From positions 19,536 to 83,535 of the forward strand of contig JAAXGW010000024.1 of assembly GCA_012267385.1 (NCBI GenBank): DNA of 64,000 bases, given 5' to 3'. Shown in pieces: positions 7,366-44,944 of the stretch (within the stretch, counting starts at the first letter, position 1; each line of letters opens with the position of its first letter). The stretch comes from OMG group bacterium (GTDB taxonomy: Bacteria > Pseudomonadota > Gammaproteobacteria > Pseudomonadales > Azotimanducaceae). The notes under the pieces are model-generated. The model made no database searches. It saw only the letters and a program-made list of their open reading frames with translations, and was not told where the DNA came from. The position numbers were made by a program, and so were the translations under genes.

Positions 7366-7374
7366 TTTCTCACC

Positions 7375-8355
7375 TCATCGAAATTGGTTAAGAAAACGAA
7401 GGTCGTTTTCGAACATCATACGTAAGTCCCTAATACCGAACTTCAGCATCGCAAGTCTGTCGGCACCAAATCCAAAAGCAAACCCACTAAACTCCTTGGG
7501 ATCCACGTTTGACATACTGAGTACTCTTGGGTGCACCATCCCGCACCCCATGACCTCACTCCAACCGTGAGCACCCTTCACATCTACCTCGGCTGAGGGT
7601 TCAGTGAATGGGAAATACGACGGGCGAAATCGTACCTCTACAGATTCTTCAAAAAAAGTGTGTATGAATTCGATGACGGTATGCTTCAGATGCGCAAAAC
7701 TCACACCTCGATCTACCACTAGTCCTTCGATCTGATGAAACATGGGCGTATGAGTACGATCGTAGTCGCAACGATAGACTCGTCCCGGGCAGATAATGTG
7801 AATCGGCGGTTCCCTATTCTCCATGGTTCGTATTTGTACCGGTGAAGTGTGTGTACGTAGTACCTGTCCGTCTTTTAAGTAAAAAGTGTCGTGCATGTCG
7901 CGAGCTGGATGCCCGGCCGGTATGTTCAACGCTTCGAAATTGTGATATTCGTCTTCAATTTCTGGCCCATGAACAACGTCGTAGCCTGCGTTGAGAAATA
8001 TATCTTCAATTCGAGTGAGAGCTTGAGTAACAGGATGTAAACTACCCTTGTATCTTGCTCTGCTCGGTAAGGAAATGTCGATCCCATCGAGGGCTGCTTT
8101 TTGCTCCCCAATTCCAGCCTCAAGTTCGTTCCGGCGTCGTTCGAGTGCGGTTTCAATGGACTTTTTGTACCGATTGATCTTCTCACCTTCAACAGGACGT
8201 TGTTCTGGTGAAAGGTCCTTTAATCCACGTAAGGCAAGCGTTATCGTTCCCTTGCGACCAAGAGCTTGAACGCGAATGTCCGCCAGCTCTTTTTCAGTCT
8301 GTGCAGACTGAACCGAACGAAGAGTACTGTCGAAAGTGTCGTTTAGTGAACCCAT
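7375..8355 (-). CDS. pheS: phenylalanine--tRNA ligase alpha subunit
   Basis: 326 aa with class II aaRS motifs: ...HPARDMHDTFY..., ...RTHTSPVQIR..., ...GFAFGFGADRLAML... Confidence 0.95.
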   Translation of the reverse strand: MGSLNDTFDSTLRSVQSAQTEKELADIRVQALGRKGTITLALRGLKDLSPEQRPVEGEKINRYKKSIETALERRRNELEAGIGEQKAALDGIDISLPSRARYKGSLHPVTQALTRIEDIFLNAGYDVVHGPEIEDEYHNFEALNIPAGHPARDMHDTFYLKDGQVLRTHTSPVQIRTMENREPPIHIICPGRVYRCDYDRTHTPMFHQIEGLVVDRGVSFAHLKHTVIEFIHTFFEESVEVRFRPSYFPFTEPSAEVDVKGAHGWSEVMGCGMVHPRVLSMSNVDPKEFSGFAFGFGADRLAMLKFGIRDLRMMFENDLRFLNQFR

Positions 8356-9958: not shown

Positions 9959-10729
9959 TTATCGATGATCGAACAACTCTTGAAGTTTTGGTCTCACCTT
10001 CGATCCAGCCCGTTCAAATATTGCTACAAGTTCTTCAAACGCATCAGCACCAGCTACGAAATTCCAAAACTCTTCACCCACCAGTAGTTGCCCCCCATCA
10101 ATATCAAAAATCTTGTCGATATTAAATCTCAGGTAAGGTTCAGGATGGAAAGGGTTATACGGCATAGCAACAGCACTCTGAATGTTGTACTTTGTCCCAA
10201 ATTGCGCAAACCCTTGTGCTGCCCACTCAAGAATTTGACGCTTGTAATCGAGAATACCACTCTTATTCGGTTTGACTGTCTTTAGGTCTATTAAGTACAA
10301 GTCTCGACCACGACGTAGGAACAGGTCTACCATAACAGTGTCACGTTCAATACTGTCGGACAAGGACATGGTCGAGTTCCGAAGTACTTTGTACTCATCG
10401 ACTGCACTCGGGGCGACTCGTTTATTCCTCAAGTCGTCTATCATGTTTGAGACCTTATCACTCGCGCGTTTAGACAACGTCTTGTTCAGTTTAAATTGCG
10501 AGATCACTTCATCAAAATTGTCTCTCGCGACTAAACATGCAACTTTCTCAAACACCGACATTCCAAATGTGGTAAGAATACTTTGAACAATTTGATGAGT
10601 TAACAGTGTTCCTGTGCCCAGTAGCGGTGTGTAAAACGGTTTGTACGAAACTTTGGTCTGATCTAAACTCCTGATTTTGGACTCGATAACTTGACAAAGA
10701 AGTTCCTCTATCTCACGAGCCGGAAGCAT
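9959..10729 (-). CDS. type II restriction endonuclease, PD-(D/E)xK-like (TdeIII-like by recollection)
   Basis: 256 aa. It overlaps the 3' end of the methyltransferase gene by 17 nt (M->R operon). The candidate catalytic core ...VMVDLFLRRGRDLYLIDLKTVKPNKSG... fits D...(D/E)xK. The family name is from memory only. Confidence 0.6.
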   Translation of the reverse strand: MLPAREIEELLCQVIESKIRSLDQTKVSYKPFYTPLLGTGTLLTHQIVQSILTTFGMSVFEKVACLVARDNFDEVISQFKLNKTLSKRASDKVSNMIDDLRNKRVAPSAVDEYKVLRNSTMSLSDSIERDTVMVDLFLRRGRDLYLIDLKTVKPNKSGILDYKRQILEWAAQGFAQFGTKYNIQSAVAMPYNPFHPEPYLRFNIDKIFDIDGGQLLVGEEFWNFVAGADAFEELVAIFERAGSKVRPKLQELFDHR

Positions 10730-12323
10730 ACGTACTCCCTCTTAAGTGAAATATTGATTCCAAGTACTTACCTTTTATGCCCTCTGCTCGATTCAAAACC
10801 GGTCGTTTAAATTCGTTCACGAGTGAATAACCCGCTTTCTCGGCAATTTTGGGATACAGACCGAATCGGTCGTTCGCCACAATGAAGACATTAAAGTCTT
10901 CAGCTAAGTAAGGTTTAACGTTCTTAAATACTTCTGCAATCTCGTCCACGTACTGTTCTCTAGCTTCTTTTCGCTGACCGTTGGACAATGACCCTATCTC
11001 GAACTCATCCCTTCTTGGGAGTTCAAGAATCTCATATGCATATGCGTGCTGATCATGGTAGTCGATAAGACCGACGTAAGGTGGCGAAGTGAAAATCCCT
11101 TGAAATTTTTGCTCCGAAATTTTTTGCGTCAATTGACTATTGCGTAGTTTGTTTATGAAGTCTAAATTTTTGGAGTCGCCAACTACACATTCTTGAAATG
11201 TATCCGTTCGAAGTGATTTGAACTCAACCAATCTCCGAGCAGTGTCTTCAAGATATCGTTTCCACCAGCCATGCAACGTAATCTTTGGTGTGCAAATCTT
11301 ATAGTGTTTTGAGCAGTAGTACGGTCTTTGAATCGGTTGAATTAGCGTGGCTAGGTCATAGTGCTTTGTTGCTCGAACCGATCTGGCAGTACGGGTCAAC
11401 ACGAGGCTCAGCAGATTGCGAATAGGAAGCGAAGTGATCTCGAAAATTTGCTGTCTTAATAGTGCCAATTCGTGCCGAATCGTAGCGACAAACCAGCGAT
11501 CTAAAAATCTTTTGCTATCTTCGTTAACCGTAAAGTCAATTGAGTACTTATCACAGAGTTCATAGAAGCACTTACAAAACTCTAAAGCGTGTTCGTGTCC
11601 AACGATATCTTCCTTGATGTCGCCTTCCGAGACAGCACGTCGAAAATGAGGACTAGGAAAGTGTTGCTTATTAAATTCACTCAAAAGCGTTTTGAGCTCA
11701 CTCTCCAAAATCCGAGCCTTGATACTCGTCTCGTCCGATTCCAACAGCGTATTAATTTTCAGGGCTTCAGCATTTAGTTGCGAATGATCAATGTCAGCTA
11801 ACTTGCAGTTCGAAATCAGCGCATTAAACTCCGATATATCGACCCCAAGTGCGTGAATCCCTAATTCGTTACATTGAACTAACGTTGTACCACTCCCACA
11901 AAACGGATCTAGAATCACATCTCCTTGTCGAAAGTATGACTCTGTCTTAAACTCATCGGTATGAGAGTCGACAAAATATTCGACCAACTGTGGAATAAAT
12001 TTTCCTTTGTAGGGATGGATACGATGGACATGCTTAGTAGTCTCTGATTCTCTGTACTCAGCGAACGACAATCGCCAGTTCAGGTCGCACGAGAACGAGT
12101 TTTTAAAGCCTTCTTTTAGACGTTGCAAGCGTTCTTCGAAGTACGTGATGACTTCGTCTTGATCTAAGACATAGCCACCGGACGTCTCTCTAATTTGTTT
12201 GAGTACGCCATAGCGTATAAGGTAATGTATGTTCTCGGTCGTAATCCGCGTTTGCGTCACCTTCGACGCGACGACGCTAGCTTCTTTAACCGTTAGCGCG
12301 GCCGTATCCTCTTCAAACAACAT
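10713..12323 (-). CDS. DNA methyltransferase (amino-MTase; motif I before motif IV)
   Basis: 536 aa. The AdoMet motif ILDPFCGSGTTLVQC sits near residue 140, and the catalytic motif IFTSPPYVGLIDY sits near residue 410. SPPY is more typical of N4-cytosine than of N6-adenine enzymes. Confidence 0.8.
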   Translation of the reverse strand: MLFEEDTAALTVKEASVVASKVTQTRITTENIHYLIRYGVLKQIRETSGGYVLDQDEVITYFEERLQRLKEGFKNSFSCDLNWRLSFAEYRESETTKHVHRIHPYKGKFIPQLVEYFVDSHTDEFKTESYFRQGDVILDPFCGSGTTLVQCNELGIHALGVDISEFNALISNCKLADIDHSQLNAEALKINTLLESDETSIKARILESELKTLLSEFNKQHFPSPHFRRAVSEGDIKEDIVGHEHALEFCKCFYELCDKYSIDFTVNEDSKRFLDRWFVATIRHELALLRQQIFEITSLPIRNLLSLVLTRTARSVRATKHYDLATLIQPIQRPYYCSKHYKICTPKITLHGWWKRYLEDTARRLVEFKSLRTDTFQECVVGDSKNLDFINKLRNSQLTQKISEQKFQGIFTSPPYVGLIDYHDQHAYAYEILELPRRDEFEIGSLSNGQRKEAREQYVDEIAEVFKNVKPYLAEDFNVFIVANDRFGLYPKIAEKAGYSLVNEFKRPVLNRAEGIKGKYLESIFHLRGSTYASGS

Positions 12324-14476: not shown

Positions 14477-16243
14477 TCACTGATTGGATTCGTCGAGTAC
14501 AAAAGCACGAACCATTTCGAGCTCTGCCTCTGACAAATAATCTTCTTGCTGCAACACGCCAATTGCAATCATGCTTCGAATCTCAACATTGTCCATTTGT
14601 GGAAGTTCTTCAAGAAGCGACTCAGCATTAATTTGCAGCCATGGCCAAACCAACCGGCGATAGAAATTCGGTCTCATTGACTTCTCGAGAGTCTCTCCTA
14701 GTGCAAGCGCGTCATCGATCCGACCGGCTTCTATGAGAAAATCACTCACTCTATTGAAAACATACGGATTAGCAGAGTCTCGAATTTGCGGTAACAGTGC
14801 CATTCCTTCGTCGATTCTTCCCTCTCTGAGTAGAGCTAAGACAACACCATCTTCTACCGCACTCTCTACCGGTTGTTTGAGTGCAATCTCCATTGCTTTG
14901 GCTGAATCGGAAAGCGCTAGTTGTTCCAAGCCATACCGCAACCTCCATCGACCATTAAAGGTACCTTGATCCATGTTTTCAAGTATCCATTGCACTGCAG
15001 CTTCAGGATCCCTTCGACTCCAAATATTTACAAATGAACTCGTCGCCTCTTGAGTATTAATTCCTATTAGTCTAAATTGTGCGAGTAATTCGAGTACTTC
15101 ACTAGGTGAAGAATTCTCGGCTATTCGGTAAATTGCGTCGCGAGCCACTGAACTCCGGAAGTCCTCCGGTACTAAGTCAATATGTTCGAGAACCTGACCA
15201 GATAATACATTCACCCAGGTTATCAACAAGTACTTGACTTCAGACTTCATAGACTCCATGTATGCATCTGAAGTAATGGTGCGTATAGCGTTTATTGGAT
15301 CTTCATCAGCTAATGCTCTAAATGCCACATTTCTGAAAGCCTGTTCAGTTTCCTCGGGCAAGGACAATAGTTGATTCCAAGCGATCGTAGGGTTGGTAGC
15401 AACAATTTCGGCGACGACAGGACGCCAAAGAATATATGATCTTTGAGTGAACAATTCTCCAACTACACTTAGCATAGAGCCGATGTTATCCTCACTCTCG
15501 CGCGCGATCCAGCGACGGGTAATCTTCTGGAGTGCTGTTTGCTTCTGAAAGTCTGAAACGTTAGCTTCGATCACTAAGTTAAATGCGTTACTTGGTTCGT
15601 CGATTACTTTAACAAGTTCAGCTTCAAATACCCACTGATCGAAGTAATCGGTGATGTCTAACGATTCCACTATTTCAGTTAATTCGGCTTCCGTCAAACT
15701 ACCCTGATGATGCAAAACTATTTTGATTGCACTACCTTTCCATGGTTCTGTCAATGACGAAAATGCCCGCAAAGCTTTGCGAGGTGCGATTGCGCTCCAC
15801 TGTATCGCTACTATTTCAAGTAAAGTCCCCCATCGTACGCGTTCTGTTTCCCAGATCAGCTCCAATGCCTTCTCTGAGTCGAGACGAGCGAGTTCAGAGA
15901 AGAGCAAGTGTTGTACCGAGTATAAATTCTCGGCGAGTTCGAGCGTGAATGTGTGCGAAAGTAAATCCGCAATCTGCTTCGCACTCTTACCTTCCAATAA
16001 TTGGTAAAGAGCGAACCGTCGATCAACGACACTCTGAAGCCCGATGATTTCTGGTAAGTCTCTCGGTACCGAGGCGAGTGCACCACTGCTTAAGCTATTA
16101 GTTAGAGTCGGGTGTAGTGTACTTTCGTTAGAAGACCATCTTTCAATTGTTTGATTCGGTGGCAGTAACAGAAAAGAAGGTAGTAGGCCCAGTCCAATCT
16201 CGCCGGTCAAACCGATGAGCAATATCACCCACTTCTTTTTCAT
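14477..16243 (-). CDS. B-type membrane-anchored helical-repeat protein (pair 1)
   Basis: Paralogue of the other B-type genes. It ends ...LSEAELEMVRAFVLDESNQ. The likely start is ATG 16243 (MKKKWVILLIGLTGEIGLGLL...); the ORF track begins at TTG 16255. Confidence 0.8.
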   Translation of the reverse strand: MKKKWVILLIGLTGEIGLGLLPSFLLLPPNQTIERWSSNESTLHPTLTNSLSSGALASVPRDLPEIIGLQSVVDRRFALYQLLEGKSAKQIADLLSHTFTLELAENLYSVQHLLFSELARLDSEKALELIWETERVRWGTLLEIVAIQWSAIAPRKALRAFSSLTEPWKGSAIKIVLHHQGSLTEAELTEIVESLDITDYFDQWVFEAELVKVIDEPSNAFNLVIEANVSDFQKQTALQKITRRWIARESEDNIGSMLSVVGELFTQRSYILWRPVVAEIVATNPTIAWNQLLSLPEETEQAFRNVAFRALADEDPINAIRTITSDAYMESMKSEVKYLLITWVNVLSGQVLEHIDLVPEDFRSSVARDAIYRIAENSSPSEVLELLAQFRLIGINTQEATSSFVNIWSRRDPEAAVQWILENMDQGTFNGRWRLRYGLEQLALSDSAKAMEIALKQPVESAVEDGVVLALLREGRIDEGMALLPQIRDSANPYVFNRVSDFLIEAGRIDDALALGETLEKSMRPNFYRRLVWPWLQINAESLLEELPQMDNVEIRSMIAIGVLQQEDYLSEAELEMVRAFVLDESNQ

Positions 16244-16333
16244 AATGCTGTGCAAAGATCTAGTGCCTAAACTTAGAGACTGTCGGTCGTAGAGTTTGAT
16301 CCTTTAACAAAGTTCTATGTTACCGAGCGTGCA

Positions 16334-21918: not shown

Positions 21919-23699
21919 CTAGTTTGTTTCATCGGGAAGAAGTGACCTGACGTATTCCAGTTCGTTCGCGCTTAAATATGGGTACCTTTCTTGTTCCCCA
22001 AGCACGGCAATTGCGATCGTCCTTCGTGTTTCCTCGGTTGGTAATTTCGGTAGGAATTCGAGCAACGACTCAAGCTCAAACCGGAGCCATGGATATACCA
22101 ATCGGCTATAGAATTGAGGTTTCTCTGCCTCCTCAAGACGATCTGCAAGCGCGAGCGCATCCTCAATCCTTCCTGCTACGATAAGGTGATAGCTTATACC
22201 GTTGTATATGTACGGGTAACCCGAAGTTTCTCGAATCTGCGGCAAGAATGAAAGACCTTTATCCAATTCTCCCTGTTGCATCAATTCGAGAATCACTACA
22301 TCTTCCAATCGACGCTCCTCAGGCTGTTTCAGTGCGAACTCCATCGCTCTCTCAGGGTCCGAAATAGCGAGATTTTCCAAAGCCGTTCTCAACATCCATT
22401 GTCCATCACGCGGTCCTTGAGCCATGTTCTTAGACGCCCATTCAACTGCTGCTAAAGGATCTTTGGTGCTCCAAACTCTCACAAATGAAGACGTTGCTTC
22501 TTGGGTGTTGAATCCTCTTAATCTCAACTGGGTTAACAAATCGATGATTTCATTGGGTGGGGAGTTCTCTGCTAAATGCTCAACTGCTATCTCAATAGCA
22601 GTCATCTTATAGTCCTCGGGGACTAGTTCAATGTATTCGAGAATTCGATCTGATACACCACGAATCCACGTTAACAAGTGCGAGTACATTTCTGACGCCA
22701 TCGCGCTGACATATTCTTGTGTTCTGATCGCCTCTATCGCAGCGTCTGGATCGCGTTCAAACCATTCGTCGAAAACATCATCAGCAAATAGCTTCTGAAT
22801 CTCAAGCGACATCGATGAAAGCTGCTTCCAAGTGAGTTCGGGGTTGAGTGCGGCGATTTCGCTCACCACTGAGCTCCACAGAAACCTCGTATCGGCAAAC
22901 ACATCGTACACGAGACTCAACATGGTACTAATGTCGTCGGTACCTTCTCTTTCAACTCAACGCTTTGTAATCTGCGAGAGCATGTAGTGTCGATGAAAAT
23001 ATGAAGTGTCGGCTTCTAAAGCTAAGCTGAATGCCTTCCGTGGTTCGTCGATTACTGCTGCGAGATGTTCTTCATAAGTCCACTTCACGAATGTGTCAGT
23101 GATGTTCAAGGATTGGGTTAAATCCTCGAGTTCATCTACGTCGAGAGTATCTTGATGTTGAAAGACCACAGCGAGCGCTCTACTCTTCCAAGGCTCTTCA
23201 CTTCAAGTACCGAAAATGCTCGCAATGCATCATCAGGTGCCAACATACTCCATTGAAGAGAAACAACATCAAGCAATGGTCCCCATCGAATGCGCGCTGT
23301 TTCCCGCACTAACTCTAACGACTCGGCAGGGTCAATACGCGCCAATTCCGAAAACAGTAGCCTTTGCACAGAGTACGAACTCTGAACATTCTCAATGTCA
23401 AACGTTTGTTTGATGAATTCTGTAATCTGCTTCGAACTCTTGTTATTCACCAACTTATAAAGTCCTACACGTCGCTCAGTCGGACTCTCAAGTTCAATGA
23501 CTGTAGCAAGACTGTTTGGTGCTGGTTCCTGACTCTTACTGACTTGCGTTTTCTCTGAAGTTGAAACACTACCTGTCGATTGCGAAGAAATGTTCATCTC
23601 TGTTTGGTTCGACGGGAAAAATAGAAGTGCGATCAGAAAACCAAGACCAACACCTACAGTTAGACTCACAAGTGTAATTACGAGTCGGTAACGCTTCAT
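21919..23699 (-). pseudogene. B-type paralogue (pair 3), disrupted by one frameshift and one in-frame TGA
   Basis: Three ORF-track pieces (23136-23699, 22957-23169, 21919-22923) together align collinearly with intact B-type proteins. The frame changes near 23195-23205, where ...SVLE / EEPWKSRALAVVFQHQ... corresponds to the paralogues' ...EPWK... block. TGA at 22959-22957 replaces the Trp conserved in the paralogues' ITxRWIE block. Confidence 0.8.
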
Positions 23700-31418: not shown

Positions 31419-32114
31419 TCAAATCTCTTCAACCTTCGGTGGAGGTGGCGCAAGAAGTTTTTTTAGAGTTTCTACATGTTCGGCTAGGTAAAACGCATGA
31501 GACTTCTTCGTCGATGACGATCTGCGTTTCTCTACTTTTGTCAAGTCGAAAGTGATACACATGAAGACCGGTTGCATTTGCACTCGTTTTGTCTCATAGT
31601 GAAAAGAACCGCCTCGGTCGAAATTGATCATTTCTTTCTTTGCCACTACTGAGACACTCTTGACAGCTTTACCAAGGTCTTCGTCTGGGTATTTCTTAAG
31701 AAAGTTGAACGGATTGCGCAATGACGTTTTGTAGAACTGAGCATGTCCTGCGTAAGAATTGCTTTGAGCTCTAATCCTCGAAGGTGTTCGCGTGGTGTCG
31801 ATCAATTTCTTAACGTTACCGTCTGATATCGAACCTTTCATCGTTAACAGCATAACTATGTCTGCGGGGCCATTGATGGTTGTTTTGGTTGATTTGAATG
31901 AATCAATCTCTACCGTGAAAGGTAGGTCTTCGTGGTTGAAAAATCCCTTGCATTCAGATTTCGAAAAGCCTTTCTTGGATAAGGGTTCTGGCGGTGCTTT
32001 CTCTTTTGGAGCTTCTGCTCCGTCCTCACCACTCGCATTCGCGGGATCTTCTTGACGTTCCTGCGCAAAGGCGGCTGTGGATACTAAAAACGCTAGTGCA
32101 ATGAGTAGTTTCAT
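31419..32114 (-). CDS. secreted hypothetical protein
   Basis: 231 aa. AGGAG lies 7 nt upstream of the ATG. It has a Sec signal peptide (MKLLIALAFLVSTAAFA/QE) and a Pro/Glu/Lys-rich segment after the signal. I recognise no family. Confidence 0.7.
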   Translation of the reverse strand: MKLLIALAFLVSTAAFAQERQEDPANASGEDGAEAPKEKAPPEPLSKKGFSKSECKGFFNHEDLPFTVEIDSFKSTKTTINGPADIVMLLTMKGSISDGNVKKLIDTTRTPSRIRAQSNSYAGHAQFYKTSLRNPFNFLKKYPDEDLGKAVKSVSVVAKKEMINFDRGGSFHYETKRVQMQPVFMCITFDLTKVEKRRSSSTKKSHAFYLAEHVETLKKLLAPPPPKVEEI

Positions 32115-34605: not shown

Positions 34606-35526
34606 TTAAATAGAGTCGTCGGTCGAATTAGGATCAATTTCTCGTACAACGCGAAATCCCACGAGACTGACACGATTTTCTGCACTATAAAAGTGTCGTG
34701 TCGCGGATCGAACAAAGAAGGGTGAAGCGATCCAACTCCCACCACGGACTACGCGCCGAGCACAATCACCCGTAGTCCAAGCCGTCCCGTCAGTCGGGGC
34801 TGTGCCAAAGTTGCGGTTCCAACAATCTAGAGTCCACTCCCAAACATTACCGTGTATGTCATAAAGCTTCCACGGATTGGGTGCATACTTCCCAACTTCT
34901 GTAGTTTTTTCGATCGGACTACCTGTATTGCATCCATCACAATTTGCTTTGCCGTATAGAAGTTCGTCGCCCCAACTGTATTTTGTATCGGTACCCGCTC
35001 GCCCAGCATACTCCCACTCAGCTTCAGAAGGCAATCGATAGATCGCACCGGTTTCATCAGACAACCACTTTGTGTAGGCCACCGCATCATGCCACGAAAC
35101 ATGGATCGCAGGTCGCGAGCCCCGACCCCATTGACTGTCGTCGGGTACAGATCTTAAAGACGCTTTGGCGAAGACTTGGTATTGGTCGAAGGTAACCTCA
35201 AATTGGGAAACAGCAAATCTACCGACTTGGACTTCACGAGATGGAATTTCGTCGTCAGAACAGTCGATTTCTGTAAGACATCCCATCTCAAATTTCCCCG
35301 ATGGTAACAATACCATTCTTGGACTCGTACCACCGATTTGTAGGGGTTCGCGAAAGACACTCAGTGCCGTCAATTGTTCAATGGACGCTTTGTCTTCAAG
35401 CAGGGTCGCTTCATCCAAATTTGGATCTGAAGTGGCTTCAGCGGCAACTTGTTCTTGGCTCAGTGTTGCTGCCGCGCTCCAACATACTAGGATCGATAGG
35501 GAAGAAGTTTGAAAGAATCTTCTCAT
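34606..35526 (-). CDS. formylglycine-generating enzyme / SUMF1-family protein, exported
   Basis: ...RGGSW..., ...GNVWEWTLDCW... and ...YRLPSEAEWEYAGRAG... are the FGE-sulfatase domain hallmarks. The likely start is ATG 35526 (MRRFFQTSSLSILVCWSAAATLSQ, a signal peptide); the ORF track begins at TTG 35583. Confidence 0.8.
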   Translation of the reverse strand: MRRFFQTSSLSILVCWSAAATLSQEQVAAEATSDPNLDEATLLEDKASIEQLTALSVFREPLQIGGTSPRMVLLPSGKFEMGCLTEIDCSDDEIPSREVQVGRFAVSQFEVTFDQYQVFAKASLRSVPDDSQWGRGSRPAIHVSWHDAVAYTKWLSDETGAIYRLPSEAEWEYAGRAGTDTKYSWGDELLYGKANCDGCNTGSPIEKTTEVGKYAPNPWKLYDIHGNVWEWTLDCWNRNFGTAPTDGTAWTTGDCARRVVRGGSWIASPFFVRSATRHFYSAENRVSLVGFRVVREIDPNSTDDSI

Positions 35527-36028
35527 AGCGTGCCCGTATTCAGTTCGCGACAGTCGTTCCACTGAGTACTTGGGATTTTTCAAGATCTTGGAATATCCAA
35601 CCTGGGAGGGTTGTACGTCTGTTGTGACTGAACGATTTCGATAAAGTTCCTTCGTTTCCTTAAAAGTTTGCTGTTGCTATTAAATGTCTTGTAGGCTGAA
35701 ATCATTCGACCAGTCCGCTCTACATCTGATGTTACGAAGGAATCTAGTAATTCTGGTTGGTGTCCTGTGCTCCTTTTAGAAAAAAATTCTACATTTTTTC
35801 TTCAATGAAAACTGGAATTTGAATGTTTGAGACGATCCGCTACTATTTGCCGACAAGATCCATATAGCTAGCGTTTGTAGACTAAACTTCGGAGAAGAAA
35901 CTCGAACACATTGAATCGGTGGTGACTTAGAGTACCATTAATGCGTCTATACTCGTTGTTAGAGCAGTAGTTCTCATTGCCTCTCAATTGCGAGAGCCTC
36001 CAAGGACGTTCATCATTCGACTTCGGAA

Positions 36029-37939
36029 ATGAAAAAACTCGGCAAATCCCAGTGGATCATTGTAGGTTGTACGGCAACCATCATTTTGGCCTTGTTTGTA
36101 GTCGTCTACGTTTTGATCACCTCCAACTTGGGAAACCGGAGTGGTGACACTAATATCGGACAAACCGATACTTCGAAGACACAAAGCACCGAAGAAAACA
36201 ACCGTACGAAGTCAAACTATCAGTCGCCCGCGGAGGCCTTGAACGACCTGGTCGATATTGAAAGTGAGTTTCAGCGTACCGCGTCCCTCTACACCTATCT
36301 CGCTGATATCGACACAAACGACCTTCTCGACTTGTTGCGTCGCTCCGAGAACATAAAACGCAATAATGTTCGTTCGAACATACAGAATGTTGCCTTACGC
36401 AAACTAGCGTTAATTGACCTTAATGAAGCTCTACGCTGGATTGCCAATATTCCACGCGTAAGGCGTGCCCCAATGTTGGAGAGTGTGTTCTATGAATGGT
36501 CGCTAACAAATCTGAGCGATGCGGTCGAAGGAGCAAAAACACTAGACGGAATAGATCGGCGAACTGCTCTTGAAGCAATTCTTTTCACCCGCAACGATTT
36601 TTCGAAGTCTGTCATGCTCGAGATCGCCCGCGAATTGGACCTTGAAGAGATTGCTCACATACAGATCAGTTCAACCCAAGCTCTTGAACTTTTAGATGAT
36701 CCTAGTTCTGCGTGGGACTTTGTTGTCAACGACAATGTCGACGACACTAGTCAACTCGAACTGTTGAAGCTTGTCTTTTCTGAGTGGAAGGAAGAAGCAG
36801 GCTTTGATGTGATGCTGCACGCGGCTGCTCTGTTCCCAAACAAAGACGAACGAAGGGCATTGAGTACCGTAATTGAAGGAGCTGTTGGCACTCAGCTCAA
36901 CGAGGCATTTGACTATCTGAAGCAATTGCCACGCAAAGAACGAGGTGAACTCCCTTGTGCACTTGCATTGGCTGCAGCTCGAATTCATCCAATGCTTGCG
37001 CTATTGGAGATTGAGAAATGGTCTGATGAACCTATCCACGTCCAAATGCAAAAAGGCGCAGCCACCACATGGGCGCACACCGATCCGAGTGAATTGCTAA
37101 ACAATCTCGAGTTGTTACCGCAAGTTACCCGAGTGGAAGCACTCGACATTGCTTTTGCCCAACTTGCTTACGCGGCTCCTGAGGAGGCTATCCAATACAT
37201 CGATGAAGCAAAGAAGTATCTTCGATCCGAAACACGAGTCTTGGCCATCATCGCAAAACAGTGGTCTAACGTAAATCCCGAGGCAGCTCTAGAGTGGGCG
37301 ATATCCAATTCGGAAACGAATAGTTCAAGGCGGAAATCTCTGGTTCAACGTGTGTTTAAAAATCTTGCATTAGTCGACACGCACGAAGCACTTGAATTGG
37401 CGCGAGGAGTCTGGAGTAGCAGAATCAGTGTGATAGATGCGGCTGAATACGATGTGATATCGGAATTCTTACATGTTGGAAAGATCGAAGACGCAATAGC
37501 ACTTCTTCCCGAGATTCACGAACAAGCACGATACTTTGCCATCGTCGATCTTGGCCACTCTCTTGTGCGCGCGGGAGATCCATATTCAGCGGTCGAGCTA
37601 GGCCTTGACGTGCCGTCTCTAAACGCACCCATGGTTGGACCAGCAGGATATTTCACTGGACTATTTAGCACATGGGCGGACTATGATCCCCAGCAGCTAT
37701 TCGATTCACTTCCAGCGATTACATCGCAACCTCTCCGGTCCAAGGCAACTAAGATTCTTCTCGATCATGAAACGACAAGACCTACTCTAGCGGAGGAGTC
37801 TATCAAATCGATGGAAGAATTCCTTAACGAGCACCCCTCGACTGGAAGTGTGGATTTGCTAGAACTACAAATGCGCGCCGAAAAAGGATTGATCGACTTC
37901 GACGAGATGGATTTACCTGAGGGTTGGTTCGAGCAGTGA
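36029..37939 (+). CDS. C-type membrane-anchored helical-repeat protein (copy 1)
   Basis: 636 aa. TM: WIIVGCTATIILALFVVVYVLI. It has ~12 repeats of a W/L-x(2-3)-[DN]-P-x(2)-A-[LI]-x-W-type helical hairpin and ends ...EMDLPEGWFEQ. Confidence 0.85.
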   Translation: MKKLGKSQWIIVGCTATIILALFVVVYVLITSNLGNRSGDTNIGQTDTSKTQSTEENNRTKSNYQSPAEALNDLVDIESEFQRTASLYTYLADIDTNDLLDLLRRSENIKRNNVRSNIQNVALRKLALIDLNEALRWIANIPRVRRAPMLESVFYEWSLTNLSDAVEGAKTLDGIDRRTALEAILFTRNDFSKSVMLEIARELDLEEIAHIQISSTQALELLDDPSSAWDFVVNDNVDDTSQLELLKLVFSEWKEEAGFDVMLHAAALFPNKDERRALSTVIEGAVGTQLNEAFDYLKQLPRKERGELPCALALAAARIHPMLALLEIEKWSDEPIHVQMQKGAATTWAHTDPSELLNNLELLPQVTRVEALDIAFAQLAYAAPEEAIQYIDEAKKYLRSETRVLAIIAKQWSNVNPEAALEWAISNSETNSSRRKSLVQRVFKNLALVDTHEALELARGVWSSRISVIDAAEYDVISEFLHVGKIEDAIALLPEIHEQARYFAIVDLGHSLVRAGDPYSAVELGLDVPSLNAPMVGPAGYFTGLFSTWADYDPQQLFDSLPAITSQPLRSKATKILLDHETTRPTLAEESIKSMEEFLNEHPSTGSVDLLELQMRAEKGLIDFDEMDLPEGWFEQ

Positions 37940-37977
37940 ATCAACAACGAAAATCATAGACAAGAAGATCGGTAATT

Positions 37978-39722
37978 GTGAGAGAACGCAATCGATTGAA
38001 CTCTAAATTTTTTCGAGGTGAGTTTTACTTCGCTGTCTTACTTGGCTCGATTCTTGTGCTGACACTTCCTATTGTCGCAGACGAAACCACAAGAACAGTT
38101 TCCACTGATTCTCAACAAGAGATCGACTCGCTCACAAATACAAAGACGGCACCCCCCGTTCTAGGACAACACGAGAGTGCGTTCAATCGCAACGTAGCTC
38201 TTTATGCGAAAATCGTCGATGCTGGCGAAAAAGAACTGCGAACTCTTTTGCATGAATCCCTTGAAATCGAGCATGGAAGTATTAGATACGATACCCTATT
38301 CGCTATCAGCAGTCGGTTTGCGTTAGTCAATCCGCCGGAGAGTTTTGCGGTAGCAATTAAGCTACCCGCGCATGAACGAGAGCCCGTGATAGTGGGAATT
38401 TTTACCGAATGGTCCGTCTCAGACTTAGACAGTGCCATCGCGGCAGCAAAAAAACTTGACCGAGATACGAGATTACTCGCTCTCAATACTATTGCGAAAG
38501 TCAGAGACGACTTGTCCGAGCTTCAACTTCGAGAAATTGCCAACGAATTAGACCACCCGGACTATGTGTCGATTTCCAAGAGCAAGGCAACAACCATCGA
38601 GCCTACTGATGATCCGATTACTAATTGGCGTGCATTGGCGCACGACGGCGTTGACAATGCATTGCAATTGGACTCTTTCATTCAAGTTGCCGCGGCGATG
38701 GTTGAACAGCACGGTCTTGGAGCGATATTTCATCTTCGAGCTCCCCTCGTTGAAGACATACGGCGTTTCGTTTGGTGGCCTAACAGGAGACACGAAATAT
38801 TCGGTGTTGTTGTAGATACTCTGATAAAAAACAATCCCGAGAGAGCATGGGCTTACATCGAAAAAGGATCGGCAACAGTACCCAACGCATTGGAGGACCA
38901 ATCTAAACCAAACACTCAAAGCGACTTTACGAGACGAGAGCGCGCATATACGACCGACGTAGTACGAGAGCTACTAGTCGAGTCCTTGGCGACTCTGTAT
39001 CCCGCGATTGTGATAGACAGAATTGAGCACTTCCCATACCATCTACAACCGTTGGCATGCAAGTACGCGTTAGCCAATCTCGCACAGACCGATCCAGAAC
39101 GAGTGGTTGCATTGATCCCGTCATTGAAACACTTCGGAGCAAGCGAATATAGAAGTTTGAGGGGTGTCGTTTCCAAGTGGTCAGAAGTTGACCCATCTAG
39201 TGCATTAACTTGGGTCATGTCCTCTCCAGAAATCAAGCCGGAATCACTCGAGAATTTAATGACACCTGCGTTGTATGCGCTCGTAGTAGAAGATCCAACT
39301 CAAGCATTGACAATAGCTGCCCAACAACCAAACTCGGAACGACTTGAAGCTTTTGTGATAAGCGAACTAGCTCTCACGGATTTAGATAAAGCGATCAAAC
39401 TGTTACCCTCTGTCAGTCCATCCGCCGGGGGTTATCAACTGCTTGGGTAGCGCGTAAAGCGATTGAGCAAGGAGAGGTCGACCGCGCTGTAGAAATGAGC
39501 CTCGAATTTGAAGAATCAACTGACGAAGCGATAAGCTGGTTTATGTTCTTCTTAACTTGGTCTGACGAAAATCCTGTCCAGTTATTTGAACGGTTGCATG
39601 ACTTTCCATCAAAACTGAGATACGAAGCCGCACACGCTTTAGATTACTATTCGAAACCAGAACTCACAAAGGAACAATTGGATTACATACGGACGATTTA
39701 CCAAAGACCTACTTATGAGTAA
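37978..39722 (+). pseudogene. D-type paralogue (copy 1) with a frame break in a G5 run
   Basis: ORFs 37978-39450 (490 aa) and 39495-39722 (75 aa) are collinear with the intact 595-aa D' protein. After GGGGG at 39427-39431, the +1 frame reads ...GLSTAWVARKAIEQGEVDRAVEMSLEFEESTDEAISWFMFFLTWSDENPVQ..., matching D' ...HLSTLWVADNAIELGDVDRALELVIKLEESSEEIIYWSSFFWTWCRENPVQ... Confidence 0.75.
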
Positions 39723-40161
39723 TGACAAGTTGTTCGAAAAAGCAGAATTGGCGTTGTAAAGAGTGTGAAGTTTTTTGAAGGGTCTTCCCTTTACGCTAAA
39801 AGGGGGAAAGAATAATCCCTTCGGCTTTGATCTTTCTCGCTGACCCTCAAATTTTTTTTAGGCGCGTGGCGAAATCTGTAGCGATGCACAAACTCTCGTT
39901 TCAACTTCGCAAACACACCTACGGCAGAAAAGAATGGTCCAGGATTCAATCAATCAGTTAGATAAGGTGATCTACGAGCACTACTCTTGTGCGAGTTTAA
40001 ATCGTTATCTTAGAAGTTTCATAACTAATACTAACCGAAGGTACAGTTTTAGAATCTATATTCAGTGTATTGGTGAATGAACTCGTTGATTTTCGCTGCA
40101 TACGGTATATAACCATACCTTGGACACAAAGGCTTCAGACATTCTCAATCCCCGTTGAGCG

Positions 40162-42069
40162 ATGAAAACACTCGGCAAATTCCAGTGGATCATAGTAGGT
40201 TGTATTGCAACCATCGTTTTGGCAGTGTCTGTAGTCATCTTCCTTTTGATCACCTCCAATATGGGAAGTCAAGATGGTGATGCTCGTATTGGACAATCGA
40301 ATACTGCAAAAAGTCAAAGAGCCGAAGCGGATCTCCTAGAGAGTTCAAAGTTTCAGTCGCCCGCGGAGGCCGTGAATGAACTGATCAATGTTGAAAGTAC
40401 GTTTCAGCGTACCGTGTCTCTCTACACCTATCTCACTGATATCGACACAAACGACCTTCTCGAGTTGTTGCGTCGCTCCGAAAGCTTAAAACGAAATAAT
40501 GTTCGATCGAATATACAGACGATCGCCTTACGCAAACTAGCGTCAATTGACCCTACCGAAGCTCTTCGCTGGATTGCAAATATTCCACGCGTACGACGTG
40601 CCCCAATGTTGGAGAGTGTGTTCTATGAATGGTCGCTAACAAATCTGAGCGATGCGGTCAAAGGAGCAAAAACACTAGACGGAATAGATCGGCGAACTGC
40701 TCTTGAAGCAATTCTCTCTACACGTAACGATCTATCGAACTCCGTGCTACTCGAGATCGCTCACGACTTGGAACTAGAAACGATTGCTCAGCACCACGTT
40801 AGTGAAGTCCAAGCTCTTGAACTTCTTGACGATCCCAGTTCAGCTTGGGACTTTGTTCTAAATGATGGTCTCGAAGACGCAAACCAACTTGAACTGTTAA
40901 AACTTGTCGCGTCCGCGTGGACGGAACAAGAAGGCTTTGATGTGATGCTACACACGGCTGCCCTATTCCAAAACAAAGACGAACGAGCGGTATTGAGTAC
41001 TGTCGTTGAAGGCGTTGTCGCCACCCAACTCGAAGAAGCGTTTGTCTATTTACAAAACATACCACGGGCAGATCAAGGCGAGCTTCCTTGTGCGCTCGCA
41101 ATCGTCGCAGCTCGTATCAATCCCAATCTCGCTTTCACTGAGATCGCAAAGTGGTCTGACGAACCGATACACACGCAAATGCAAAAGGCCGCGGCCAACT
41201 CATGGGCACACTCGAACCCGCGAGCAACGTTGGACAATCTCGAGTTGTTGCCCCAGGTTACCCGAGTGGAAGCAATCGACATCGCGTTGACCCAACTGGC
41301 TTATGCATCACCAGAAGAGGCGATCCGATATATTGGTTTGGTCAATGAGTTTCTACGATCTGAAACGCGCATATTGACGATCATCGCGAAACAGTGGTCT
41401 AACGTAGATCCAGAAGCAGCACTCGATTGGGTGATGTCCTATTCAGAATCGAATGAAAATTTGCGAGATGCTCTGGTTCAAAACGTGTTTAAAAATCTTG
41501 TTGCTGTTGACACGCAAAAGGCACTAGAACTATCTCGTGAAATCTGGAGTACCAGACTTAGTGTCGAGGATGCAGCAGAATACGATGTCATCTCGGAACT
41601 TGTGGCAATGGGGAAGATAGACGAAGCAATAGATCTTCTTCCCGAGATTCACGAACAAGCACGATACTTTGCCATCGACGAACTTGGACGATCGCTTGTG
41701 CAGGCGGGAGATCCATATTCCGCAATCGAGTTGGGTGTAGACGTGCCGTTTTTGAACGCTCCTTTGGTTGGCCCAGCAACTTATTACTTCGGAGTATTTC
41801 ATGAATGGGCGGACCGCGACCCTCAGCAGCTGTTCAATTCTCTACAAGCAATCACATCGATACCAATCCGGTCGATGGCCGCTCAGATACTCCTAGAACG
41901 TCAAGAGTCTAGACCCGCTCTATCGGACGAGTCTGTCAAGTCTGCGGAACAGTTTCTTAGTGAGCATCCAGCAACAAGCCATGTCTATATGCTCGAACTG
42001 GAAATACGAGACGAGAAAGGTCTAATCGATCTAGATGAGATGGTCATACCAAAAGATTGGTTCGAATAG
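40162..42069 (+). CDS. C-type membrane-anchored helical-repeat protein (copy 2)
   Basis: 635 aa, collinear with copy 1 along its full length. It ends ...EMVIPKDWFE. Confidence 0.85.
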   Translation: MKTLGKFQWIIVGCIATIVLAVSVVIFLLITSNMGSQDGDARIGQSNTAKSQRAEADLLESSKFQSPAEAVNELINVESTFQRTVSLYTYLTDIDTNDLLELLRRSESLKRNNVRSNIQTIALRKLASIDPTEALRWIANIPRVRRAPMLESVFYEWSLTNLSDAVKGAKTLDGIDRRTALEAILSTRNDLSNSVLLEIAHDLELETIAQHHVSEVQALELLDDPSSAWDFVLNDGLEDANQLELLKLVASAWTEQEGFDVMLHTAALFQNKDERAVLSTVVEGVVATQLEEAFVYLQNIPRADQGELPCALAIVAARINPNLAFTEIAKWSDEPIHTQMQKAAANSWAHSNPRATLDNLELLPQVTRVEAIDIALTQLAYASPEEAIRYIGLVNEFLRSETRILTIIAKQWSNVDPEAALDWVMSYSESNENLRDALVQNVFKNLVAVDTQKALELSREIWSTRLSVEDAAEYDVISELVAMGKIDEAIDLLPEIHEQARYFAIDELGRSLVQAGDPYSAIELGVDVPFLNAPLVGPATYYFGVFHEWADRDPQQLFNSLQAITSIPIRSMAAQILLERQESRPALSDESVKSAEQFLSEHPATSHVYMLELEIRDEKGLIDLDEMVIPKDWFE

Positions 42070-42072
42070 TTA

Positions 42073-43860
42073 GTGAAGAACGGAATTGTGCTGATGGCAA
42101 AATCAACACTAGAAAGAGTGAAAGGAGATTTGTCCTCAGTGCTACCGCGCTTTATGTTCTGGCGAGATAGAGCGCGATCAATGGTCTTGCTAATCGCGAT
42201 CTTGGTACTAGCGCATGTTGTTGTAACGAACGAGGTAGCAATTACAGATTTGGCGGTCGCACAACAAAACATCGATCATTCAAAACAGACGACATTGCTT
42301 CCTCCGATTCTAACCGACCACAAAACTGGTTTCGAACGCAATGTAACTCTCTATACCGAGCTCGTAAACGCCGGAGAGAAAGAGTTGCGTACCCTATTAA
42401 TCGAATCACTCGCGATCAAACATTCTAGTATCAGAGACGAGACCTTGTTCGCTATCGGTAGCCGGTTTGGATTAATCAATCCGCAACAAGGCATAGACGA
42501 AGCGAACGAGCTTCCAGTTCACCAACGTAAACCTCTAATTAAGGGAATTTTTTCTGAATGGTCTGGATCAAATTTAGACACTGCGGTTGCTGCCGCTTCG
42601 AATCTCGATCGAGACTCACGGCTAACCGCGTTAGCAGCTATTGCGAACGTTAGGGACGACTTGTCCGACTTAAAACTTCAAGAACTAGCAAGTGACTTAG
42701 GCCATCCCGATTTTGTAGCTCAATCGAACAGCAAATTGAACATTGTCGAGTTGTCTGATGATCCGATCACCGCTTGGAATACATTGGTCCACGACGGACT
42801 GGACGATGCGTCGCAAGTCGACTCTTTCGTGCTTCTAGCTGAATCAATGATTGAACAGCAAGGACTCGATGCTCTGTTTCAACTTCGAATACCGTTTTCT
42901 GAGGCCATAAGGCATAGCGAATTTCTAGGTGGTAGGGGTGGAGTTTTCGGTTCGATTGTGGACGCTATTGTTAGAAACGATCCACAGACCACATGGACTT
43001 ACATTGAAAACGGATTCACTGAAACGGCAGACAGTTCGGCACAATCAACCAATCAACAATTCCCAAACGAAGTGTCGCGACGAGAGCGCGCACATATGAC
43101 AAACGTTGTACAGCGATTACTTCTCGCATCGTGGGCGATAGTCGATCCAGCATCGGTGAATGATCGAATCGAGCAGCTTCCAAACCATTTACAACCGTTA
43201 GCCTGTGAGCAAGCTCTTCCTGAACTTGCGCGGACCGAACCAGAGCGAACCGTTGAACTAGTCCAAACATTGAAGAATCTCGGTGCAAGTCAGTCTAGAA
43301 CATTGCGCCTAATTGTCGCGCAATGGTCGTCCAACGACCCATCCAGTGCAATCGATTGGGTGTTGTCTTCGCCAGACATCCAGCCAGAATCGCTTGACGA
43401 CATCTTGAAACCAGCTTTGTACTCGCTAGTTGTCGAGAATCCAACTCGGGCACTGGAAATAGCTGCACAGCAACCAAATTCTTCACGACTTGAAGCTTTT
43501 GTGATTAGCGAACTAGCTCTTTCAGATTTAGATAGAGCTATCGAGTTATTGCCTTCGGTGAGTCAACCGGCACGACATCTCTCAACTCTTTGGGTAGCTG
43601 ATAACGCGATTGAGCTCGGAGACGTTGATCGCGCGCTAGAGCTTGTGATAAAACTCGAAGAGTCTTCCGAAGAAATAATTTATTGGTCAAGTTTTTTTTG
43701 GACATGGTGTAGAGAAAATCCAGTTCAACTCTTTGAAAGATTGGATGAGTTACCTCAAAATTTGAGACAAGAAGCTGCCCGTGAATTGGACTCCAGATGG
43801 AGACCAGAACTTACTCAAGAGCAACTAGACTACGTCCGCACGCTGTATGACAAAAACTAA
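42073..43860 (+). CDS. D-type membrane-anchored helical-repeat protein (copy 2, intact)
   Basis: 595 aa. GTG 42073 lies 3 nt after the C' stop; an alternative start is ATG 42094. TM: MVLLIAILVLAHVVV. It ends ...LTQEQLDYVRTLYDKN. Confidence 0.8.
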   Translation: MKNGIVLMAKSTLERVKGDLSSVLPRFMFWRDRARSMVLLIAILVLAHVVVTNEVAITDLAVAQQNIDHSKQTTLLPPILTDHKTGFERNVTLYTELVNAGEKELRTLLIESLAIKHSSIRDETLFAIGSRFGLINPQQGIDEANELPVHQRKPLIKGIFSEWSGSNLDTAVAAASNLDRDSRLTALAAIANVRDDLSDLKLQELASDLGHPDFVAQSNSKLNIVELSDDPITAWNTLVHDGLDDASQVDSFVLLAESMIEQQGLDALFQLRIPFSEAIRHSEFLGGRGGVFGSIVDAIVRNDPQTTWTYIENGFTETADSSAQSTNQQFPNEVSRRERAHMTNVVQRLLLASWAIVDPASVNDRIEQLPNHLQPLACEQALPELARTEPERTVELVQTLKNLGASQSRTLRLIVAQWSSNDPSSAIDWVLSSPDIQPESLDDILKPALYSLVVENPTRALEIAAQQPNSSRLEAFVISELALSDLDRAIELLPSVSQPARHLSTLWVADNAIELGDVDRALELVIKLEESSEEIIYWSSFFWTWCRENPVQLFERLDELPQNLRQEAARELDSRWRPELTQEQLDYVRTLYDKN

Positions 43861-43909
43861 CAGTAGAACGCAAAAGCGTTTTCCAAGTGTGAATGTACCT
43901 GACGCGTTG

Positions 43910-44944
43910 CTAAGGCAACATCGAACTACTCTGCTCACCTAAATCGGAAGATTCGGACTCATCTTCACAACTGAAGTCCTGGTACCAGTGTGAAAATTGG
44001 TTTGCACTTGGAAAGATAATGGTCAATCGAACGCGAAACGAATATTCAAAGTGATTCAACACCACAACATCTAGATCCGGTTCACGCTCAAACGTCCCTT
44101 GGAATTTCAGTTCTCGGACTCGAAGTCCAAAGTGAGGAACAAATCCGCGACCTGCACTTTGGTCGAACATCGTGAACTCATGTGTTTCTGGGTCAATCGC
44201 CAAGGTGAGTTGCAGATGCTTGGTCACAGGAGACTTGGACTTTCGGTTCGGTTTAAGACCCACAAACAGTTGCTCATCGTCTGTTCCTAGATAGTGTGTT
44301 GGGACCAACGATTCAAACCACGATTTCATCGCGGCGGGGTGAAAATCGCCCACTGGAATACGCTCCTCGCGACGCGCTCGTTTCTGTTCCACGCTACTGA
44401 ATAGCGCAATTTTCTCTTGATAATGACTATATCGTTCACTCTCGCTCGGTTCTTCATCATCAAGCTTTAGCAGTGTCCAAGGCGGTTCTAGCGTCGCGTC
44501 AAATTTTTCTTCAACTCTCGCAGAAACTGTGTGCGCAGCTGGAGTATCGAACCATTCCATCAGCGCTTTCCTCCCCGGTTGCAGAAGCGAGTGGCGAAGT
44601 GCATAAATACTACGACGAGTGGGCTCTCCATCGCAGTCATCACATGGAGCAGTGATTTTGGTGTACGTACAGGGACGGTTCTCGTCAGTACCTAGATTTT
44701 TGACTGCGGTAGACCAAATTTCTAGAGTGTCTTCAGCAATAGGCTCTGCGTCGAGCCACAAGTGCTCCACGTCAAACCCATTGGTAACTGTGGAAACCTC
44801 TTTAGCGTCCCGCGTATCAGAGCTAATTATTGAAATTCGAACACTGCAACTAGAAGTGATGAGAAGAATAAAAAGCAAGCCTGTAGCGGTTATAACAGTT
44901 TGAAGACTGCGCATTAGAAAAAGTGACCAAAAACTAGGGTTCAA
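43910..44944 (-). CDS. hypothetical lipoprotein
   Basis: 344 aa. It has an N-terminal hydrophobic segment ending in a lipobox-like LLITSSC. It is convergent with the D' gene. I recognise no family. Confidence 0.6.
   Translation of the reverse strand: MNPSFWSLFLMRSLQTVITATGLLFILLITSSCSVRISIISSDTRDAKEVSTVTNGFDVEHLWLDAEPIAEDTLEIWSTAVKNLGTDENRPCTYTKITAPCDDCDGEPTRRSIYALRHSLLQPGRKALMEWFDTPAAHTVSARVEEKFDATLEPPWTLLKLDDEEPSESERYSHYQEKIALFSSVEQKRARREERIPVGDFHPAAMKSWFESLVPTHYLGTDDEQLFVGLKPNRKSKSPVTKHLQLTLAIDPETHEFTMFDQSAGRGFVPHFGLRVRELKFQGTFEREPDLDVVVLNHFEYSFRVRLTIIFPSANQFSHWYQDFSCEDESESSDLGEQSSSMLP

Follow-up and report, generated by a model that had tools for sequence, protein, structure and literature searches.

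The window analysed here is a 64,000-nucleotide (nt) stretch of contig JAAXGW010000024.1 from an OMG group bacterium, and our subject is the cluster at 36029-43860 within it, where two tandem gene pairs, C-D and C'-D', encode large proteins related to those of a separate minus-strand array (the A/B array, with members of types A and B). C and D are diverged paralogues of one helical-repeat family, they recur across genomes as an ordered pair whose two members diverge together, and in three independent samples they are fused into a single chain. Tentatively, and at slightly less than an even chance, we propose that an inner-membrane-tethered C and a soluble periplasmic D act together as a binding or scaffold module in a rapidly diversifying family. 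Each unit would be a two-gene operon for two diverged paralogues of one alpha-solenoid family resembling pentatricopeptide repeat (PPR) and tetratricopeptide repeat (TPR) proteins. Both C and D would be exported over the inner membrane; C would stay tethered via an uncleaved N-terminal signal-anchor, with its N terminus inside and its body in the periplasm, D would be freed as a soluble periplasmic protein once its signal peptide is cleaved, and the two bodies would work jointly, at 1:1. The family would diversify via whole-unit duplication, recombination between paralogues and fast amino-acid change, and later steps at this locus would include the swapping of a 5' tract between C and C' and the recent inactivation of D by a 1-nt deletion.

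Pairing, N-terminal signals and natural fusions

The pairing of the two genes is strikingly regular. In each of 17 pairs, drawn from more than 10 metagenome-assembled genomes (MAGs) and at least three genomic contexts, D comes directly after C, and the gap between the genes, measured to the earliest possible start of D, runs from -13 to +69 nt. Pairwise distances among the C proteins track those among the D proteins (Mantel r 0.947, a value equalled in none of 5000 permutations), and the tree of C agrees with that of D, both showing three deep pair lineages. Each pair also has a conserved leader and a promoter-like block of its own. The pairs thus behave as units, as an earlier note on this DNA had supposed. 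The same note had read the gap between C' and D' as only 3 nt; this stands for the earliest start candidate of D', GTG 42073, but not for ATG 42094 (the ENA gene call) or GTG 42118 (where the start of the orthologue P0204 aligns), either of which widens the gap to 24-48 nt.

The two members of a pair carry different N termini. In the C type, a hydrophobic segment of 17-26 residues follows an N terminus of charge +2/+3; in C itself it is 24 residues long and follows MKKLGKSQ. The A/B and other members have segments of about 21-30 residues, with a few shorter ones (e.g. 14 in 14477-16255). In the D type, the segment spans 9-22 residues, mostly 13-19, and typically ends in a small-x-small motif (A-x-A) followed by D/E-E, common forms being LPWIALA/EED, FPFNALA/DED, LPIVA/DE and HPVVA/NE (the slash marks the end of the segment); that of D' has 17 residues and lies just before N-E. 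From these features we infer that C is a type-II signal-anchor protein with a periplasmic body, and that D-type proteins are probably Sec substrates with a predicted cleavable signal peptide and no anchor. The shared anchor, linker and repeat body that the earlier note ascribed to both types therefore fits the C type, whose segment is followed by a disordered linker, but the anchor probably does not extend to the D type, in which the segment resembles a signal peptide and is deleted in fusions.

These fusions are single-chain C-D proteins of 1073-1171 residues, represented by four database entries (P0029, P0193, P0194 and P0007). For P0029/P0194, the genes could be traced to three independent samples (KELL22-1 SAMN22237336, SRR16351679 and NGUY21-1 SAMN17524325), where they sit between dnaE2 and a PhyH gene. 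The same locus in L002/L014 holds separate C and D genes, which are the closest relatives of the fusions. On the 3.6-Mb chromosome OZ242357.1, this dnaE2-PhyH locus (L002/L014 14036-15340 and 20313-21914) also has transposase genes (DDE_Tnp_1_4, Transposase_mut) among the family members, and a PIN/FitA toxin-antitoxin pair is likewise interspersed there. In the split orthologue, C ends ...GLIDLDQLAVPDEWLEE and D begins with MKLVRNRHRELSCFVVLAVTILWAFVQIA followed directly by EEVQAQATDALEHGTS, whereas in the fusions the chain runs ...GLISLDQLDEPEE-VQAQVTDALEQGTS. Here the C tail ...LDQLDEPEE meets VQAQVTDALEQGTS exactly at the predicted cleavage site of the split orthologue, between AFVQIA and EEVQAQATDALEHGTS. 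What the fusions have lost is the stop codon, a few C-terminal residues of C and the predicted signal peptide of D, and nothing else. This suggests that the N terminus of D is a dispensable export signal, and the structure of the fusion likewise suggests that the two bodies work in one compartment at 1:1.

Several points weigh against the proposed module. The calls of signal peptide and anchor are heuristic, being made from the length, charge and end motif of the hydrophobic segment; the segment of D' ends VVVT/NE, a weak cleavage site, and a few D-type proteins have segments of 19-22 residues. The AlphaFold2 (AF2) model of the fusion P0029 contains two solenoids joined by a disordered linker (601-652) but shows no confident packing between them, with a predicted local distance difference test score (pLDDT) of 75 and a predicted template-modelling score (pTM) of 0.41, on an alignment that is shallow and unpaired in the D half, with four near-identical rows there. 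Physical contact of C with D is deduced, and the neighbouring genes give no functional clue and no pointer to a ligand. D is broken both here and in another locus (L013), so some C copies may work without a partner. In addition, synonymous divergence (dS) within the locus is near saturation, and the order of events in its history is uncertain.

Some of these points would be expected if C and D were simply tandem paralogues acting as independent monomeric solenoids of the periplasm or membrane, their adjacency, co-divergence and fusion reflecting shared ancestry and operon inertia. C and D are indeed each other's closest relatives, so that adjacency could be a relic of tandem duplication, and the lack of confident inter-body packing in the fusion model and the broken D genes beside intact C genes fit this explanation as well. 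However, the C-then-D order persists in three deep pair lineages and at no fewer than three genomic locations although C and D share only 25-29% identity, the N termini are complementary (anchor in C, signal peptide in D), and the fusion drops the export signal alone and is retained in three diverged samples. We regard independent action as fairly unlikely.

A helical-repeat family without a family model

The AF2 model of C', built from a 25-row alignment, is an all-alpha solenoid (pLDDT 85.4) in which a transmembrane (TM) helix (residues 6-33) and a polar, disordered linker (31-61) precede about 35 helices. These form about 14 hairpins of 30-35 residues, each consisting of a 15-18-residue helix that ends in W-x3-D-P and a short helix that starts at the Pro (...QWSNVDPEAALDWV...). 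One feature of the C-type tail may be mentioned separately. The segment KGLIDLDEMVIP (residues 619-630 of C'; 42016-42051) ranks in the top ten 12-mers of the C alignment by conservation despite low AF2 confidence, and the natural fusions retain it; it could serve as a docking peptide.

C and D are related to each other and to the A/B array over their whole length. C-type and D-type proteins are 25-30% identical (BLASTP E 1e-31 to 1e-57), and C/D proteins are 19-30% identical to the products of the ten minus-strand array genes (BLASTP E 1e-9 to 1e-38). Profile comparison by hhalign aligns C with D at a probability of 100% (E 5e-61, 513 collinear columns) and C with A/B likewise at 100% (E 1.5e-60, 584 columns that start at the TM helix and reach the C terminus). 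In a tree of the window copies, 12634, 16334, 20056, 23773 and 27481 form clade A, 14477, 18202, 25627 and 29359 form clade B, and C and D form a third clade as sister groups. At least 14 family copies lie in a 32-kb part of the window. The earlier note's placing of C and D in the A/B superfamily is thus borne out by collinear full-length homology, and the separate C+D clade agrees with its view that they are a pair type of their own. That note had also named two outcomes that would speak against it; profile analysis did not find C/D unrelated to A/B, as the hhalign E value makes plain, nor did C/D fall into characterised families, for there was no match to Pfam, NCBIfam or PADLOC.

Indeed, scans of C, C', D, D', A/B members and nine distant relatives against these three collections returned nothing significant, and as regards known anti-phage defence, PADLOC assigned no family to any of seven proteins. 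Nevertheless, a profile of the family made from the window copies and their orthologues retrieved 19,068 cluster representatives at E<=1e-3 (clusters at 50% identity) and 2,103 at E<=1e-30, and the best 150 of the 19,068 matches are nearly all full-length proteins of about 500-700 residues. Cluster look-ups yielded almost no names for the family, and a literature search found no description of it. Distant members have the repeat and the N-terminal hydrophobic segment in common, and often the tandem pairing too. Orthologues of C' number 25, with 47-75% identity, and every one comes from a Gammaproteobacteria/Pseudomonadales MAG; those of D' are 42-74% identical to it. We conclude that this is an undescribed helical-repeat family with PPR/TPR-like hairpins, without membership of the PPR family.

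The resemblance to PPR proteins is real but limited. Like them, the family has tandem helical hairpins of about 35 residues that form an alpha-solenoid, and a segment of the profile two repeats long (positions 449-527) aligns with designer PPR repeats (y..Vi..L...GkideAi.ll / lg..lv.aGdp..Al.L). Unlike them, it has no Pfam PPR match, and its repeat is built from a long helix ending W-x3-D-P and a short helix beginning at Pro; moreover, PPR proteins are organellar RNA binders, whereas the family here is bacterial, predicted to be exported and membrane-anchored. One may argue that these are genuine cytoplasmic PPR-type nucleic-acid binders whose N-terminal helix tethers them to the inner face of the membrane, citing the match of the family profile to designer PPR proteins (E 1e-18) and the PPR-like repeat period of about 32-35 residues. 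However, that E value is a sum over a single profile segment of 55-80 residues, which matches identical designer repeats 4-9 times, each time with an independent E value (i-E) of 0.009-0.08, and natural PPR10 scores only E 0.7. A single-sequence search of the PDB gave PPR matches only at E>=0.03, no Pfam PPR match was found in eight window proteins at E<=1 or in nine distant members at E<=0.1, and the positive-inside rule together with the signal-peptide-like N termini of D would put the bodies outside the cytoplasm. This explanation is thus very improbable.

Foldseek comparison of the C' model with the PDB found generic solenoids only (importins, PP2A-A, SF3B1, PPR, NatA) with TM-scores of 0.15-0.29. 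The top match is a periplasmic motor scaffold chain of Campylobacter jejuni, 9hmf_K, and periplasmic scaffolds of the TPR/Sel1 type (PflA/PflB, PelB, BcsC, AlgK, LpoA) do offer a parallel as alpha-solenoids of the envelope that serve as scaffolds or adaptors. PflA and PflB are described as two different repeat proteins in one periplasmic scaffold of the flagellar motors of Campylobacter and Helicobacter (PMC11392913). Yet TM-scores in this range amount to generic solenoid similarity, flagellar and exopolysaccharide genes are absent near the locus, and those scaffolds are single-copy, whereas this family is expanded in tandem. A Pfam TPR/Sel1 scan gave no match for C, C', D or D', and the distant member P0070 reached only a sub-threshold TPR_19 score (24.2 against a 25-bit cut-off). 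HEAT/ARM solenoids (importins, PP2A-A, SF3B1) are similar in being long, superhelical and all-alpha, and account for many Foldseek matches at E 1e-3 to 1e-2, but they are eukaryotic proteins of the cytosol or nucleus, show no sequence relationship to the family and do not exceed a TM-score of 0.29.

History and tempo of the two units

The two units of the window are anything but a fresh duplication. C and C' are 69.8% identical in amino acids and 76.8% in nucleotides, so the "roughly three quarters of residues" of the earlier note overstates the protein identity, and D and D' are 54% and 65.8% identical, respectively. Dating the duplications by dS, a check that the note had recommended, gave 0.71 for C/C' (ratio of nonsynonymous to synonymous divergence, dN/dS, 0.26) and 1.9 for D/D' (dN/dS 0.18), values that are near saturation. 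The orthologues P0002/P0003 are 74-75% identical to C', against 70% for C, and the orthologues P0204/P0205 are 73-74% identical to D', against 54% for D (P0003 and P0205 each come from a 4,187-bp contig, possibly one and the same). Since the orthologues of C' and D' are closer to them than C and D are, the units separated before that split. The pairs may thus be called younger, as the earlier note did, relative to A/B, but they are not recent.

The identity between C and C' is also unevenly spread. At 36212-36511, C is 89% identical to C' in nucleotides, against 77-79% elsewhere, and residues 80-200 of C are 88-89% identical to C' with dS 0.27-0.31, against 0.8-1.5 downstream. For most of the first ~280 residues of P0003, C is the nearer relative, and from there on C' is; D lacks the mosaic pattern of C. 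The high C/C' identity is therefore at least in part, and probably largely, a product of recombination or gene conversion and not of younger age.

Comparison with related MAGs places the two units in a longer history. The locus uvrB-FGE-[pairs]-344aa-ybjQ is syntenic across them, with two pairs in L004-L007 and one in L003/L008. In L004, L006 and L007, two kinds of pair occur, type 1 in first place (46-51% identity to C') and type 2 in second place (57-59%), whereas both window pairs are type 2 and sisters in the tree. Repeated duplication of pair units, another suggestion of the earlier note, is accordingly upheld by the existence of several pair lineages. The leader ahead of C is at odds with the type of its pair: over 457 nt, the DNA preceding C has 72% identity to what precedes the type-1 C gene (C1) of L007, identity to L004/L006 is 71-73% over 398 nt, and the last 55-72 nt before the start of C are 79-80% identical to type-1 C leaders elsewhere (L009, L016). 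No match was found between this leader and the spacer at 39723-40161. That 439-bp spacer is 61-68% identical to the D1-C2 spacers of L004, L006 and L007, the last ~210 nt matching, and DNA similarity between the two units starts exactly at both ATGs. Because a type-1 leader stands ahead of a type-2 unit, the resident pair was probably overwritten. On this sequence comparison, the ancestral locus probably held a type-1 pair followed by a type-2 pair, and the coding block of the first slot was replaced by type-2 sequence, no fifth unit having been inserted. Unit 1 itself looks like a replacement followed by gene conversion, not like a simple new duplication.

The break in D belongs to this history. 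In a three-frame translation of 39380-39725, D reads ...LLPSVSPSA in one frame and then RGLSTAWVARKAIEQGEVDRA... in the -1 frame, and the repaired reading matches D' (...LLPSVSQPARHLSTLWVADNAIELGDVDRA...). Since the -1-frame continuation matches D', the break in D comes down to the loss of one nucleotide, within or beside CCGCCGGGGG (39422-39431). Repaired D is 54-55% identical to D' with a dN/dS of 0.18, and D is probably a recent pseudogene. The frameshift is also present in a second assembly, whose contig matches the window without a difference for 13.9 kb and may derive from the same reads, so that it is not independent. Programmed frameshifting at this point is ruled out, there being no slippery site of the form X XXY YYZ. 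Other split copies exist: in L013 5128-7133 (MAG CO36404bin_7), the D that follows an intact C is divided into two overlapping open reading frames (ORFs) of 408 and 360 residues, and within the A/B array a family copy is split into a C-terminal ORF of 334 residues and an N-terminal ORF of 187 residues (21919-22923 and 23136-23699, respectively, minus strand).

The family changes far faster than its surroundings. Between the window and L004/L006/L007, amino-acid identity is 95-96% for UvrB, 95-96% for HIT and 91-93% for the aldo-keto reductase, but 57-59% for C' and 52-54% for D'. Against L006, C' and D' have dN values of 0.28 and 0.36, respectively, versus 0.02-0.14 for flanking genes, and dS is 1.5-1.8 for C'/D' versus 0.3-1.0 for the flanks; with L004 included, dS of the positional orthologues of C'/D' ranges from 1.5 to 4, versus 0.3-1.0 for flanking housekeeping genes. 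Overall, amino-acid change in the family is about 10 times faster than in neighbouring housekeeping genes. The higher dS hints at exchange with diverged alleles or at inflation by the estimator. The family is thus among the fastest-evolving and most expanded gene sets of sponge-associated Pseudomonadales, beside highly conserved housekeeping genes, and such a pattern usually marks interaction with a variable partner, be it host, phage or polymer.

Repeat proteins are enriched in sponge symbionts. The "eukaryote-like" repeat proteins of these symbionts (ankyrin, TPR, leucine-rich repeat) are expanded families as well, and the host range of the C type, so far seen only in sponge-associated Pseudomonadales/Gammaproteobacteria MAGs, fits with them. 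The present family differs in lying outside the catalogued types, with no Pfam model, and in its conserved heterotypic pairs, its specialisation of anchor and signal peptide and its natural fusions. C and D might still be effectors of this general kind, exported and then released to the sponge host, for example in vesicles or through a secretion system encoded elsewhere, where they would modulate recognition or phagocytosis under host-driven diversification. The restriction to sponge-associated genomes, the massive expansion (at least 14 copies in 32 kb), the very fast evolution relative to the flanks and the PPR/TPR-like repeats all agree with such a role. On the other side, the full-length membrane anchor of the C-type and A/B proteins argues for retention in the inner membrane, secretion-system genes are absent nearby, pairwise dN/dS of 0.18-0.26 indicates purifying selection overall, and the superfamily has distant members outside the sponge lineages, e.g. 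in an Opitutales MAG. Release to the host is thus unlikely in our estimation.

Setting of the locus and implications

The window is scaffold_43 of the sponge-metagenome assembly ROBB19-1_SAMN11878273, and its G+C content is even along its length (0.43-0.49). The four plus-strand genes of the two pairs are flanked by a gene with an FGE-sulfatase domain (34606-35583, minus strand) and by a 344-residue hypothetical (43910-44944, minus strand). The features of the locus are collected in Table 1. ORF lengths, the 439-bp spacer and the start-to-start period of 4133 bp given in the earlier note all agree with the ORF list and with a repeat search of the window, which returns 4133 bp independently. 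The database protein P0004 is identical to C.

Table 1. Coordinates of the features of the two-pair locus in the window
Feature	Position	Strand	Remarks
Leader/intergenic region 5' of C	35584-36028	+	Homologous to type-1 pair leaders, not to the C' leader
C, C-type, 636 aa	36029-37939	+	ORF; signal-anchor helix (predicted), polar linker, helical-repeat solenoid body
Probable gene-conversion/recombination tract in C	36212-36511	+	Common to C' at 40345-40644
D, broken D-type gene	37978-39722	+	ORFs 37978-39450 (490 aa) and 39495-39722 (75 aa); 39722 is the end of the repaired reading
Inter-unit spacer, 439 bp	39723-40161	+	Last ~210 nt are the conserved type-2 pair leader
Sigma-70-like promoter candidate, TTGATT-N16-TATAAC	40086-40113	+	~50 nt upstream of C'; conserved block
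C', C-type, 635 aa	40162-42069	+	ORF; AF2 model
D', intact D-type	42073-43860	+	595 aa from first GTG; 588 aa from ATG 42094 (ENA gene call)

Rfam had no match at E<=1 anywhere in 35400-44100, spacer included, and a scan of the region for promoter and terminator consensus sites found them no commoner than in shuffled sequence. The TTGATT-N16-TATAAC block was missed by the consensus scan because its -10 element ends in C, but it is the best-conserved stretch of a five-genome leader alignment and occurs once in the window. Judged by motif and conservation, it is a predicted promoter, which suggests that each pair may have a promoter of its own.

The hypotheticals that flank the locus in all syntenic genomes, of 231 residues (31419-32114, minus strand) and 344 residues, have a classic signal peptide and an N-terminal hydrophobic segment, respectively, and neither matched Pfam or PADLOC. 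Beside the A/B array lies a type II restriction-modification pair (9959-12323, minus strand), made up of a TdeIII-like endonuclease (PF09520, E 8e-52) and an N6/N4 DNA methylase. The window's pheS/pheT genes (4951-8355) are about 4 kb from the array, and in L022/L023 (6359-9419), which belong to an unrelated G+C-rich lineage, two distant members of 498 and 472 residues, both with an N-terminal hydrophobic segment, lie between pheS and pheT.

In summary, strict heterotypic pairing, a predicted division of labour between anchor and signal peptide, and natural fusions make the tethered-C, soluble-D module a concrete and testable two-component periplasmic model, for which a natural fusion, or the two bodies without their N termini, would be the obvious construct for biochemistry. 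Even if the two-component model proves wrong, the locus cleanly illustrates both concerted evolution and slot replacement within a tandem gene family, and some 19,000 clusters without a Pfam, NCBIfam or PADLOC model represent a sizeable stretch of unannotated protein space. A bolder and improbable extension takes C with D, and likewise A with B, to be periplasmic receptors that function only as heterodimers of one anchored and one soluble chain; rapid turnover of their sequence, duplication of whole units and recombination between paralogues would give sponge symbionts a combinatorial repertoire for recognition. If true, bacteria would possess, in their envelope, an equivalent of the diversifying receptor families that are built on repeats, in a "dark" superfamily of ~19,000 clusters.

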